From a bacterium (GTDB lineage: Bacteria > Zhuqueibacterota > Zhuqueibacteria > Residuimicrobiales > Krinioviventaceae), in assembly GCA_963675755.2 (NCBI GenBank), contig CAXXMD010000002.1, forward strand, positions 2,240,001-2,304,000: 64,000 nt of DNA, read 5' to 3'. Each line of letters starts with the position of its first letter. Within the stretch, counting starts at the first letter, position 1. A program made the position numbers and the translations under genes. The notes under the pieces were generated by a model. That model was not told the DNA's origin. It made no database searches and worked only from the letters and a program-made list of their open reading frames with translations. Of this stretch, positions 18,134 to 24,364 are shown piece after piece.

Positions 18134-21100
18134 TTAATTGCCTTTACCACAGCAATTTTTATATTTTTTCCCACTTCCACAGGGACAAGGCTCATTTCTA
18201 CCAACTTTATTGGTATTAATCACCTGACGCTGCTTACCCGCCGGACGTCCCGGTGTGGGTTGGGCCTGTGCTTTACCCTTGGGTGGAGCCATTACCTGTT
18301 TAAACAACTCTACCTGAGAATGAGATGTAGATACCTTTTGCGGTTCGGCACGTCTCATTTCCCGTTCTTCAAGCTCACCACCAACATCCAGTACGCGGAA
18401 AAGAGTGCTTACAATATCTCTGTTTGTACTGTCAATCATTTTTACAAACATTTTGTAAGCTTCGCTCTTGTACTCAATCAATGGATCTTTTTGGCCATAA
18501 CCGCGCAATCCAATACCTTCACGCAGTTCATCAACACCACTCAAATGCTGACGCCAGTTCTCATCAATTTTTTCAAGTATATAATACCGCTCGTATCTGG
18601 CTACCATAGATTCGCCAATCTCATCTACACGGCGTCGGTAAATACTTTGTGCCCAACTACTCAGAATATTCATCACCGTATTGGGATCCATTGCCTCACC
18701 ACTTTCATCGTGCAGGCGTGGCGATTGTCTGAATACCAGACGGCATTCCGATTCCAAACGACGAATCTGGGTAGCATCAAGATCATCATTATTACCCAGC
18801 ACACCGCTGATCATCTGATAGATTGTATCATCGATCATGGTTAAAACAGAATCAAAAACAATATCTGTACTGAGCCGTTCCTGATGGTAACGCTCAACCC
18901 GGTCTGCATAGGTTTTATAGAAACTCAAACCCCATGCAACCAGTTCTTCTCGATACGAGTTTAATGTTTCACGTTCACGAGATGCCGGCAGAATCTTGTC
19001 CGGTTTTCCCATAAACATATTCTGAAAACTTGATGCCAGTAGCTGTTGTGTTGATTCGGCATCTTTGTTTTCTTTGATAACATTTTCAAACCTTGCAATA
19101 ATAGAAGATTCTATCAATTCTTCAATGGATGTATTGGCAAGTAACAATTGGTTATATACGGAAATATTTTCTCGTAAATGCTCCAAATAGGTATTTCTTG
19201 CCCATCGCATTGTCTGGTTAACAAGATCAGGCCAGTCTTTCAAGGCTTCAGCAGGTTCAAATGCTTTACCAAATACACCCTGCAAAAACTCTGCCTGTTT
19301 TCCTTCCAGTTCTAAAACATCCCGGCTGTGGTAAGCAGATGCCTGAATAAAACTGTGTTCAACTATTGCATTAATATATTGTACAGATGAAAAATAGCCC
19401 AGAATACGGTTACGATACAACATTTCATCCTTGGCGGTAATTGCCAGACCGTCAAGCCATTCCTGAACTTTTTCAATTACTTTTTCTCGTCGAATGGTAC
19501 GCATCTCATTTTCACCAATGGGCGGACGCTGCATAAATATCTTTTCAAGATCACTTAAAAAGTTCTCTGAATTCCAGGTTGCCGCTGGCGCATCAATTGG
19601 TAAATGACGATTAACCAAACCATTTACATAAATTTCCAGAAAAGTGTTCAACGGAATGGTTTTAAAAAGAATAAGGTCTATTGCTTTTTGCCCGTTTTCT
19701 ACCTGAGAATTATAAACAGATGCAGCCCATTCTTTCAATTTTGATTCAAAAGCATCAGCAGTATCAATATTGCTATTCTCAAGCCAATCTGGTTTTTGCT
19801 CAAAAATACGCTCCATTTCATAACCAATGCCTTCAATATTCCATTTTGAAATATCTCGGGTACCAGCGTTATGCAGTCTTATTTTCAACAATACCAGCTC
19901 ATCTATAATATCTTGAATATTACAATACCCGGTAATACGGTGACGTTCCTGCATTTGATAGAGGTGGCGCTGTTCTTTCAACTTTTCATCAACCCAGGTT
20001 CTCAAAGTCTCCCGAACACCACTAACATCCTGGCTTTCAAGTTCAGATTTGGTAAAATCAGGTTCTGCACCAAAATACCGTTTCAGATTTTCAAACAATT
20101 CATCCAGTTTCCAGGTTGAACGATCATCTTCTTCATCAATAAAGCGTTTGATCTTGGCTTCTACAAAATCTTCCGGCTGTGCAAAACCCAGCAGGTTTTG
20201 TCGTCGTTTATATATAATCTTTCTTTGTTCATTCAATACGTCATCATAATCCAGCAAATGCTTACGGATTTCAAAGTTGCGTTCTTCAACTTTTTTCTGA
20301 GCGCGTTCAATGGATTTTGTGATCATAGAGTGCTCAATGCGCTCTCCCTCATCCATACTGCCTAAACGACTCATAATATTTGTAATGCGGTCAGAACCAA
20401 ACAGACGCATGAGATCATCTTCCAATGACAGATAAAAACGTGAAGAACCCGGGTCTCCCTGACGTCCTGCACGACCACGTAACTGCCGGTCAATTCGACG
20501 GGCTTCGTGTTTTTCTGAACCAATGATCTGCAAACCACCTTTTTCAATCACATCTCTGGTAAGCTTGATATCCGTACCACGACCCGCCATATTGGTCGCA
20601 ATAGTTATAGATCCCGGTAGACCCGCTTTGGCAACAATTTCAGCTTCGTTTTTATGATACTTGGCATTCAATACCGTATGAAAGCGTCCCGATTCCAGCT
20701 CTTTAGTAACATCACCCTTTTTCAGCCAGTTGGCAACAGGAATACCGCGCTGGGTAAACAAATTACTCAGATGCTGAGAAACATCAACTGAAACCGTACC
20801 AATCAGAACCGGTAGTCCTTTTTCATGATACTCTATGGTATCTTTAATGATTGCATCATACTTTTCAGCCTTTGTTCGATAGATCACATCATTCATATCA
20901 TCACGAATAACCGGTCTATTGGTTGGTGCAACAATAACATCCAGCTTATAAGTGCTGTAAAATTCCTGCGCTTCGGTTTCGGCGGTACCGGTCATACCTG
21001 CCAGCTTATTATATAATCTAAAGAAATTCTGCAAAGTAATGGTAGCCAGTGTCTGACTTTCGGCCTGTACTTCAACACCTTCTTTGGCTTCCAACGCTTC

Positions 21101-24100
21101 GTGCAATCCGTCACTGAAACGGCGTCCCGGCATTAAACGACCGGTAAACTGGTCAACAATCATAACCGCTTTATTTCCACGTTTTGCACCGGTACGTCTT
21201 AATTCATTATCTTCCACAGCCTTGACCACATATTCAACATCGTTATGATAAAGGGTATATGCACGCAGCAACTGGGATATATTTTGAACGCGTTCTTCCA
21301 CGCGGTTATAATCCTGCCAGATCTTGTCACGCTGCTGTTCCAGCATTACACGTGGACGTCTCTCAAAATGGATGCGGAACCAGTGTTCAATCTCTTCATT
21401 ACGCATAACAAAATTCGGCATATGGGCATTAGACAGCAATTCTGTCATCTCGCGATCATCCAAAACAACATGGCGTGAACGCAAATGCGCTTTTTCTTTA
21501 GGAAGCAGTCCCTGAAGCTCTGCCCGACTGCCGGCTTTTTTAGTGCTCAACTGCATAATCTCATCGCGAAAACTCTGATACTCATCCCGGTAATTGAAAT
21601 AAGGCAATCCGCCAATCAACAATGTACGGGCGGCTTTTTCAATACCCTTGGGCATTTTGTTTTCATCCAAAACAAATAGAGCATCAATATCTACATTCGG
21701 GTCACTGGCAGCTTCTTTTAATTTATCCACAACCTGACTACGTTCAAAAAACAGTCCTTGTAGATTCTTGCGGCCGTTTTCGGTTAATCCTGAAATATTA
21801 ACAGTCGTCAATACCGGGTCTTCGGGATGCAGGGTACCACTAAACTGGAAATACCTGCGAAGCCAGCGTTGACGTTCTGTAAGGGTTTGATCCGTATCTG
21901 CCAGGTTTGTAAAGATCATCTGTATTGTATTATTGAGGCGTTCTACCTCTTCAAACCGACGAGAAGCACTGATTATCTCTGCGGGCAAGTTGAATTTTTC
22001 CTGTAGATGTGCATCCAGCTTTAACTTGTTTGACAGTTCATTTTTACCGGTGTCACGGCTCCAGGATTTAATTTCTTTATCTACATCGGCAAAGCTCGCG
22101 CCCATCAGGCGTTCCAATTCAGCGTCTGCTAATCCGGATACACGTCCATCCGCGTCAGTTTTAAAAATAGCCTCAGGTTTATCTTTATAATCACCCAGGT
22201 TTTTTTCAAAATGTCGTATTACGGCTTTACTTTCACTGCTGAAATTAGAAAGACATTCAACACCCAAAGCGGTAATGTCAAACCTGCTGGTTTCCATAAC
22301 ATAAAAATCATTGTTTGCAGGGTCTTCAAGTGTTTGAATATGTTCATACAGTGATGTTACATCTTTATCCATATCTTCTACAGCAAGAACATGAGCAGAA
22401 TAATCATAATCTGCCTGGTTTAGGGTATCATCCAACTGTTTTTGGATCTGCTGGTCACGTTCTTCAACCAGGGTTCTGTCAGGCAGTACATACAGATCAG
22501 GATTACCGCCAAGCAGAGCAATACGGCCTTTTTCTGTTATCTGATTTAAAACAGCACCATTGTCTTTAAACTCGAAATATTCCTGTTTAATGTTTTCAAT
22601 AGTGGTCACATCCTGTGTTGTTGCTGGATTTAAAAGTGCAATCAATCCATTAACAGTAGGCAGTAGCATAGGATCACCAGATTTTTGCATTGCCAATACC
22701 GCCAGCTTGCCTTCTTCCGTCAAACCGGTGATTGCGCCAAACTGTTTTTCTGTTTCAAAAAAAACATCGGTCAATTCTCTTCTTCTGTCAACAAGCGGAC
22801 GTTTCATAACCGGCTCAGCATCTACGTCTGCTTCTTCACGTACCATATCTAAAAGCTTTACAAAGGCGTCTACAATGGATTCGTCATACTTTCCGTTTGC
22901 ATTTGATTTCAGATAATCAATACCTGCCGGGGCCATACTATTCACAGCCCGATCCATCTTTTTTGTCATATCGTAAAATTGACGCCAGGCAGAGGCCTTG
23001 TCGCCTTTATTGTTTTGCAAACGTGTATTAACTTCTTCAGGCAAATCGTTCAATTGAAGAGCAAGCTGTTCAATGGGTTCAAACTCAGACTCGGCAACTC
23101 CGGATTGTATACCAATAAGGGCAGCTTTACCCGCAAGGGTCAGGCCATTACAGGTGCCTGTAATGGAATCATGTGTAAAATAGATGGAGCGGTTCTTTTG
23201 CTCACTGAGCTTTTCAAGCGTTGCGCTCAATTCATCCAGCTTTTGAATTTTATGTACAATATCCTGATCACGACCACCCGAGAGGAATATACGTCCCTTT
23301 TCGGTAATGTCTATAACATGGCTTTTTTCGTCAATGGTAAAATACAAATCGGCATCAATTTCACCCATTTGCTTATTAACTTCATATTGGCCCTGAATTC
23401 GCTCAATCAATTTCTTGACCCAGAATTCCGAAGTCAACAGTTCAAGCAGTTCCTTGTTTTTAGGATCTCCACGATGTACCTGAAGGATCTTGATACCTGC
23501 CTGCTCTTCTTCATTCTCGAGCAATTCTTTGCCTTCCCGCAACAGTTGCTGTACCAGTTCGTTTTGTCGTTTTGCCAGGTTCTCTACAGTGGGTTTTAAT
23601 TCTTTGTAAATATTCTTGGGTGCGCCAACAGCTCCCGAGATAATAAGCGGGGTTCTGGCTTCATCAATTAAAACACTGTCCACCTCATCCACAATTGCGT
23701 AATGTAATGGACGCTGAACAACAGACCAGACATCCTGAGCCATATTATCACGCAAATAATCAAAACCAAACTCGTTGTTGGTACCATACGTAATATCGGC
23801 ATGATATGCCGCGCGGCGTTCTTCAGGAGATTGATCTCCAAAAATTGCGGCTACGGTTAATCCCAAAAATTTGTAAATCTCGCCCATCCATTCACAGTCA
23901 CGTTGGGCCAGATAATCATTAACAGTGATAAGATGCACACCCTTGCCTTCTAACGCATTCAGATACAAAGGCATAGAGGCTACAAGGGTTTTACCTTCAC
24001 CCGTTGCCATTTCTGCTATTTTTCCTGAATGCAGAATCATACCACCCAATATCTGCACGTCATAAGGGATCATGTCCCATTCTATCTCCTGCCCTCGTAC

Positions 24101-24364
24101 AATCCATTTTTTACCACGCAGCCGTCTACATGTATCCTTGACAACAGCAAAGGCCTCGGGCAAAATATCATCAAGAGTTTCCCCCATACGTAATCTATAT
24201 TTAAATTCGTTGGTTTTCGCTTTTAACTCATCATCAGACAAATGCTCATATTCTTTAGCATATTCATTCACCGTACCAACTAGTGGTTCTAGCCGTTTAA
24301 CTTCACGTTCGGTGCTTGTGCCTCCCATAACCTTGGAAAGCATTTTTTCAATAGACTTTAACAT
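18134..24364 (-). CDS. secA: Preprotein translocase ATPase SecA, giant form (2076 aa) with repeat-expanded PPXD and helical wing
   Basis: [126 protein letters not shown]. Confidence 0.97.

Follow-up and report, generated by a model that had tools for sequence, protein, structure and literature searches.

We describe a SecA of 2076 amino acids (aa), about twice the normal size, encoded in a 64,000-nucleotide window (contig CAXXMD010000002.1, positions 2,240,001 to 2,304,000 of the forward strand) of the genome of a KSB1-like bacterium. The protein is a genuine SecA and a member of the family with a new architecture: nine copies of a hairpin-helix unit, present once in canonical SecA, form a real, selected, and lineage-specific accessory domain on the bulb of the preprotein cross-linking domain (PPXD). 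We regard the structural and evolutionary account of this array, taken as a whole, as close to certain. The best overall explanation, an accessory PPXD domain with a docking role, is put forward tentatively, at a probability of about 0.4. We found no description of a ∼2000-aa SecA, of PPXD hairpin repeats, or of wing-domain repeats in PMC open-access papers or bioRxiv.

Identity of the Giant SecA

The secA gene lies on the minus strand (18134..24364) as one uninterrupted open reading frame. Its product scores above the Pfam cut-offs for SecA_DEAD, P-loop_SecA, SecA_SW, SecA_PP_bind, and SEC-C, and it has the full SecA domain set: NBD1 interrupted by the PPXD, NBD2, the wing/scaffold region, and a C-terminal SEC-C zinc motif. 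The translation also shows the Walker A motif (GEGKT) and the DEVD box. Among NCBIfam models, the protein matches NF009538/PRK12904 with 972.5 bits (cut-off 814) and TIGR00963 with 910 bits (cut-off 800). The top-scoring model was NF009536/PRK12901, with a match split into five stretches; its 1096.8 bits lie below the cut-off of 1493, so the protein is not assigned to the Bacteroidota-type long SecAs. Nor is it an accessory SecA2, since all four SecA2 models stay below their cut-offs and the genome (6.48 Mb in three contigs, 98% complete) holds no second SecA; both of its SecA_DEAD matches in Pfam fall inside the same 2076-aa frame. Because the giant form is the only SecA of this genome, the PPXD array belongs to the housekeeping motor.

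A Nine-Unit Array in the PPXD

We located the extra sequence by alignment with E. coli SecA (PDB ID code 6s0k, chain h), which phmmer aligned to residues 6–288, 1028–1292, 1272–1434, and 1902–1991 of the giant protein. In the PPXD, E. coli residues 275–313 are replaced by ∼740 aa. The insert proper, insert 1, occupies aa 364–1020 (21305..23275; this and all features below are on the minus strand) and comprises block A (aa 364–619) and block B (aa ∼630–1008). It is followed by the native C-terminal half of the PPXD (aa 1021–1092, 21089..21304), which carries the motif NISQLLRAY and matches positions 53–110 of the SecA_PP_bind profile. A first-pass annotation, made from the sequence alone, had placed nine degenerate hairpin-helix copies at 21290–23350, which corresponds to aa 339–1025 and thus to the PPXD insert region, and had held that they add about 600 aa before normal sequence resumes at NISQLLRAY. 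The motif indeed stands at aa 1028, where the E. coli alignment restarts, and insert 1 adds ∼657 aa relative to E. coli SecA and ∼610 aa relative to SecAs of sister lineages. Compared with six such SecAs (L003–L008; 1027–1124 aa, taken from sister orders and sister families within the phylum), the blocks specific to the giant protein are aa 364–619, 630–745, 756–824, 834–1008, 1054–1065, 1210–1228, 1412–1582, and 1633–1900. Two of these are small: one adds 12 aa to the loop of the second native hairpin of the PPXD (aa 1054–1065, 21167–21205), the other 19 aa to NBD2 (aa 1210–1228, 20678–20737).

The nine units begin at aa 341, 395, 463, 535, 596, 687, 733, 838/856, and 896, spaced by 54, 68, 72, 61, 91, 46, 105, and 58 aa. 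U1 (aa 341–362, 23279..23344) is the N-side copy of the native hairpin-helix; it is near-invariant in the family and has the sequence type of the single unit of sister SecAs. U2 (aa 395–416, 23117..23182) pairs with U1 (P = 1.6e-7) and with U4 (P = 2.4e-8), and U3 (aa 463–487, 22904..22978) pairs with U2 and U8 (both P = 4.4e-7). U4 (aa 535–560, 22685..22762) pairs with U5 (P = 1.5e-8), which lies at aa 596–617 (22514..22579), leads into the native C-side flank, and like U1 is near-invariant; the other units keep 40–55% column identity. Downstream of U5 follow U6 (aa 687–705, 22250..22306; P = 1.4e-6 with U1), U7 (aa 733–754, 22103..22168; P = 2.8e-6 with U9), U8 (aa 838–869, 21758..21853), which has a 13-aa loop between its strands, and U9 (aa 896–916, 21617..21679; P = 2.3e-5 with U4). 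A strand-strand-helix fold is predicted for each of the nine units. Across units, the conserved positions are an aromatic residue in strand 1, a G-[LI]-[TA] sequence ending strand 2, and a glycine in the helix cap. The last ∼110 aa of the insert region (aa 920–1027) are conserved nearly like the core.

Self-BLASTP of the single 2076-aa sequence gave no off-diagonal match because the repeats are too degenerate for one sequence, and family profiles were needed. We aligned the giant SecA (P0001) with 43 homologues (alignment A1; three short homologues, P0030, P0034, and P0047, were left out), cut unit profiles as slices of this 44-member alignment, and compared them by hhalign. The U1 profile found U5 (P = 8e-7), U6, U2, U3, U4, and U9 in the remaining insert, against a best P of 0.34–0.63 in the controls (the reversed insert and the N- and C-terminal parts of the protein). 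The U5 profile found U4 (P = 3e-6), U2, U8, and U3, with a best control P of 0.053. When all units were compared with one another, 16, 20, and 26 of the 36 pairs reached P < 1e-4, < 1e-3, and < 1e-2, respectively; in 360 control comparisons, which set units against random windows, the counts were 1, 7, and 15. No unit lacks a partner at P ≤ 2.3e-5, and the pair alignments are in register. A hidden Markov model (HMM) of the nine units marks nine domains in the protein and no tenth, a result that is circular for the nine and serves as a count; its best score on the reversed sequence and 50 shuffles was −0.5. Searches of the nine single-unit slices against Pfam (E ≤ 10) returned no SecA_PP_bind match, even for the native U1, and three weak, unrelated matches (E = 0.0028, 0.074, and 0.21). 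The profile self-comparison that the first-pass annotation had proposed thus supports the unit copies statistically against controls; all the strings it had quoted are present in the reading frame, and both the profiles and the structural model below agree with its count of nine.

Predicted Structure of the Array

We modeled aa 240–1120 with AlphaFold2 using the family alignment (mean predicted local distance difference test, pLDDT, 82.8; predicted template modeling score, pTM, 0.65). The model has nine strand-strand-helix motifs exactly at the nine units, U1 included, each followed by one to four longer helices. Most of insert 1 is at pLDDT 80–95; the native C-terminal half of the PPXD is badly modeled in this excised piece (pLDDT < 50). 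U2–U4 modeled alone (aa 388–592) reached pLDDT 92 and pTM 0.87, and we read this model as predicting that the modules pack into one body rather than forming beads on a string.

Foldseek found no significant match to either model in the PDB, the best E values being 0.81 for U2–U4 and 0.17 for the 881-aa model, and retrieved no SecA chain with either. The likeness to the solved PPXD hairpin therefore rests on the secondary-structure pattern and on profile homology, and the earlier proposal that the repeats resemble the PPXD subdomain is borne out in topology and in profile homology but not by structural retrieval. When the giant SecA and the sister SecA L003 were each searched by phmmer against PDB sequences, the hairpin region stayed unaligned, so the link from U1 to the solved hairpin rests on position and inspection; by inspection, the E. 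coli segment HFSVDEKSRQ resembles U1. A look-alike search of the ESM Atlas with the insert gave no usable match.

Origin by Duplication of the Native Unit

In sister SecAs the unit occurs once, as YFxIDEKxHxIDLTEKGRxxLSPNDPxxFVLPD, and a helical stretch of ∼45 aa separates it from NISQLLRAY. In the giant protein, U1 retains the ancestral N-side context, and U5 retains the C-side flank, matching the ..SPNDPxxFVLPD of the sisters. To relate the other units to the native one, we used an HMM from which U1 and U5 had been left out (built from U2, U3, U4, U6, U7, U8, and U9). Its best domain was the native hairpin in all six sister SecAs (independent E from 2e-4 to 0.36), and the diverged units are hence homologous to the native unit.

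The similarity extends beyond the hairpin and its helix. Residues 341–455 align with 395–530 over 115 columns (P = 1.2e-12), 395–491 with 535–623 (P = 5e-9), and 697–787 with 860–954 (P = 2.4e-7). Because each of these alignments covers a pair of neighboring units and their linkers, the repeat exceeds the hairpin-helix in length, and its history partly involved duplication of two-unit blocks. The repeat unit first proposed does recur, but the true repeat also includes the linker helices. The insert arose by serial tandem duplication of the native module of β-hairpin, helix, and linker helix, partly in two-unit blocks. The ancestral single unit is now split between U1 and U5, with seven more diverged copies between and after them.

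Distribution and Selection

We surveyed 121 genomes of the phylum, including the source genome (G000): 27 from its order and 94 from outside it. Counts of SecA, SecY, and SecB include an unpublished genome of the same class (G088, SecA frame 1103 aa), on which no claim rests alone. The giant SecA pattern occurs in all 27 genomes of the order, as open frames of 2060–2100 aa in 23 and as shorter frames in four (G081, G110, G108, and G091). In the 94 genomes outside the order, the largest SecA frame among the matches listed is 1183 aa, 34 further matches lying beyond those listed. The SecA_DEAD matches that appear split outside the order (G067, G030, G063, and G084) belong to SecAs interrupted by contig breaks and collinear with L003, which is of normal size. 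Some genomes encode a further SecA_DEAD frame of ∼808–856 aa, possibly a second, short SecA. It accompanies the giant form in two genomes of the order (G110 and G102) and is also seen without it, in genomes of other orders (G013, G016, G050, and G058); G000 lacks such a frame.

When the insert was searched against 1.84 billion representative proteins, no relative outside the giant SecA family appeared. The sole non-SecA match, P0051, is a 3076-aa surface protein with immunoglobulin-like repeats (Big_13 and Big_7), and we rejected it as a repeat-driven false positive, its BLASTP identity of 23–25% running over its own repeats. Of 46 insert-bearing homologues, 43 have lengths of 2049–2111 aa and insert identities of 38–53%; two carry the source label "candidate division KSB1". 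The count of nine units holds in all 44 aligned members, with an insert 1 of 639–684 aa, and the ATPase core is highly conserved in the family alignment. Between G000 and G052, a pair from the same genus with 65 aa differences, the ratio of nonsynonymous to synonymous substitution rates (dN/dS) amounts to 0.021 in the core, 0.050 in insert 1, and 0.057 in insert 2, which belongs to the second array described below. Order-wide fixation, the constant count of nine units, and the low dN/dS together indicate that the arrays are old, fixed, and under strong purifying selection.

A Second Array in the Helical Wing and the Genome Setting

A second array of about six tandem, ∼90-aa units resembling the helical wing, which the first-pass annotation did not mention, lies at aa ∼1398–1915 (18620..20173) and contains insert 2 (aa 1412–1900). 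Off-diagonal profile matches occur at offsets of ∼90, 179, 264, and 357 aa, with a best P of 1.7e-13 compared with 0.009 for the best reversed control. Its outermost copies, the first and the last, connect to the segments aligned with the wing/scaffold region of E. coli SecA, in which residues 721–744 are replaced by ∼470 aa. The array adds about 440–490 aa, and insert 2 measures 480–490 aa in 44 of 44 family members. By these profile matches, the helical wing domain (HWD) is amplified about six-fold. A complex prediction of block B (modeled as aa 630–1040) with the wing array (aa 1395–1920), run without controls, scored 0.00 and speaks neither for nor against a contact between them.

The neighbors of secA are housekeeping genes, namely nusB and the genes for a class IV aminotransferase, a DUF494 protein, topoisomerase I, and a tyrosine recombinase.

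Comparison with Known and Other Oversized SecAs

The giant SecA shares with SecAs of canonical PPXD (PF01043; PDB ID codes 6s0k, 1tf5, 1m6n, and 3din) the same motor, the domain order, the native hairpin-helix, and the C-terminal PPXD half. However, the canonical PPXD has one hairpin-helix unit, whereas the giant SecA has nine, with ∼657 extra aa between E. coli positions ∼275 and 313. Two further features, a helical insert preceding the hairpin and the ...LSPNDPxxFVLPD flank, are common to the giant protein, the Bacteroidota-type long SecA (NF009536/PRK12901, 1118 positions), and the sister SecAs. In the sister SecAs the hairpin unit and the wing are each present once, and in comparison the giant protein has an extra ∼256, ∼360, and ∼440 aa. 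Conserved signature inserts of thermophile SecAs are described, in the part of the source cited, as lineage-specific clade markers, one of them 50 aa long (PMC7023208); the two inserts of the giant SecA, by contrast, consist of internal repeats and measure ∼657 and 489 aa.

Two other long SecAs carry large inserts at the same PPXD site, directly after the native hairpin and the ..VLPD flank: P0081 (1580 aa, named Chitinivibrionales by its source), with ∼540 aa (aa ∼396–939), and P0113 (1705 aa), with ∼680 aa (aa ∼406–1090). Unlike those of the giant SecA, these inserts look purely helical on inspection, and L-[ST]-x-x-E/Q motifs recur in them. The unit HMM matched only the native hairpin in both proteins, self-BLASTP found no repeats in them, and neither was recovered by the search with the giant SecA insert. 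Such unrelated large inserts at one position in other lineages make the site look like an insertion hot spot.

Three further long SecAs (P0059, P0064, and P0066; 1562–1640 aa) align twice to NBD1 of a normal SecA; in one example, residues 107–369 of L003 correspond to 35–307 and residues 83–309 to 309–532. All three have a gap of ∼375–390 aa before the C-terminal scaffold. This pattern suggests an N-terminal motor-domain duplication together with a C-terminal insert.

Possible Functions of the Array

The position of the two arrays provides the starting point for a functional proposal. In the part of a review cited here, the PPXD bulb is described as rotating by up to ∼70 degrees on its stem, binding signal peptides and SecYEG, and closing onto NBD2, which traps the chain (PMC11610655). 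A second source, in the passage cited, places the substrate site between PPXD and NBD2 and the PPXD at rest beside the HWD (PMC5963308), and as far as the passages cited go, both have PPXD and HWD together flanking the signal-sequence site (PMC5963308, PMC11610655). The PPXD bulb would thus be the swiveling wall of the polypeptide clamp, and the two arrays would enlarge both walls of the substrate-entry region, with the ATPase core and SecY unchanged. That PPXD and HWD form the walls of this region and that both are amplified leads to our favored proposal of an enlarged docking or guiding surface: an extended surface of low specificity that may capture or guide unfolded preprotein segments, or a delivering partner, ahead of the clamp. 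Judged from the location and architecture of the array, docking of a substrate or partner is possible, although we would place it somewhat short of even odds.

The first-pass annotation had read the array as a multivalent preprotein-binding or holdase arm, a role that none of our results supports. Several observations weigh against docking. Insert 1 is acidic and hydrophilic (net charge −31; grand average of hydropathy −0.58), with no hydrophobic enrichment, and conservation across units falls on fold-determining positions without a recurring surface motif. The review passage cited does not name the hairpin-helix unit itself as a binding element, and Foldseek, as noted, retrieved no SecA chain. 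The inserts of P0081 and P0113 fit a permissive hot spot as well as they fit a shared need. SecB is missing equally from sister orders with normal SecA, and trigger factor is present in 40 of 41 genomes of the class, on both the giant-SecA and the normal-SecA sides.

The other components of the export pathway were compared across genomes, with G000 included in the sample counts, and no compensating change was found in SecB, trigger factor, or SecY. Whether from the order or from outside it, almost all SecY frames listed have ∼445–500 aa, with ∼453 aa as the ordinary size. SecB profiles matched in 3 of 71 genomes of the class, one match reaching the cut-off (26.5 bits), and none in G000. These matches, too weak to interpret, all lie in the giant-SecA order (G004:C129:4501–4797, G019:C44:2237–2578, and G072:C1:64982–65218). 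Homology of the insert to chaperone families was found neither in Pfam, nor in the search of 1.84 billion representatives, nor in the ESM Atlas. In a more ambitious version of the docking proposal, the PPXD array with its nine units and the wing array with its six would form a built-in, multivalent substrate-handling sleeve on a standard SecA motor, a cis-acting holdase or guide that might keep long unfolded secretory chains export-competent without SecB; we consider this improbable.

Among the alternatives, we give most credit to entrenched repeat bloat, although we think it unlikely: near-neutral duplications at a permissive PPXD tip and in the HWD of the order's ancestor would have become structurally interlocked with the remainder of SecA and been kept because their misfolding or loss would damage an essential protein, without a new activity. 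The unrelated helical inserts that P0081 (∼540 aa) and P0113 (∼680 aa) carry at this position of the PPXD fit such a history, as does the amplification of two separate domains of one gene on the same branch. The limitation of cross-unit conservation to fold-determining residues and the lack of co-change in SecY, SecB, and trigger factor also speak for it. Neutral repeat arrays, however, usually vary in copy number, and here copy number and length are fixed in 44 of 44 members down to 38% identity. A dN/dS of 0.05 for insert 1 and the near-core conservation of aa 920–1027 likewise count against this reading. The same conserved final stretch of ∼110 aa would also suit a partner-docking or regulatory arm, an array that acts as an autoinhibitory lid on the clamp or binds something other than substrate. 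Its partner could then be a ribosome or nascent-chain complex, a targeting factor, or the membrane, or else a second SecA protomer or the chain's own HWD array. The prediction that U2–U4 fold as a compact unit (pTM 0.87), the joint acquisition of the HWD array, and the resting position of the PPXD beside the HWD in the passage cited (PMC5963308) are consistent with such an arm. But no candidate partner emerged from our analysis, the net charge of −31 disfavors direct binding to anionic membranes, and SecY has no matching change; we rate this explanation as less likely still than bloat.

That the array is an artifact, through chance recurrence of motifs, an assembly chimera, or a mobile insertion such as an intein or foreign domain, has almost negligible probability. 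The blank self-BLASTP and the failure of Pfam to find anything relevant in single units could be read in this way, but the profile tests are positive against controls and dN/dS is low. Intein, foreign DNA, and chimera are ruled out by the even GC content over the secA region (0.40–0.44), by the absence of a homologue outside the giant SecA family among 1.84 billion representatives, and by the recurrence of the insert in separate assemblies, as 23 uninterrupted frames of 2060–2100 aa. We retain, tentatively, an accessory PPXD domain with a docking role as the best overall explanation.

Implications

SecA is among the best-studied and most conserved of bacterial machines, and models of its action assume a compact motor of ∼100 kDa in which the clamp opens and closes as the PPXD swings through tens of degrees. 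The whole order described here depends on one SecA of roughly double that size, which works with the same SecY and carries ∼75 kDa grafted onto the swiveling bulb and ∼55 kDa onto the wing. The array cleanly illustrates how a ∼25–45-aa fragment of an existing domain can give rise to a new folded one, and the giant SecA is a sharp clade marker for the order. If the arrays bind substrate, they would represent a natural fusion, in cis, of the motor with a chaperone-like activity. If they bind none, they show what load of inert mass a swinging PPXD tolerates and so constrain mechanical models. Were the two arrays to form a substrate-handling sleeve, the order as a whole would have re-engineered the entry side of its Sec translocase.

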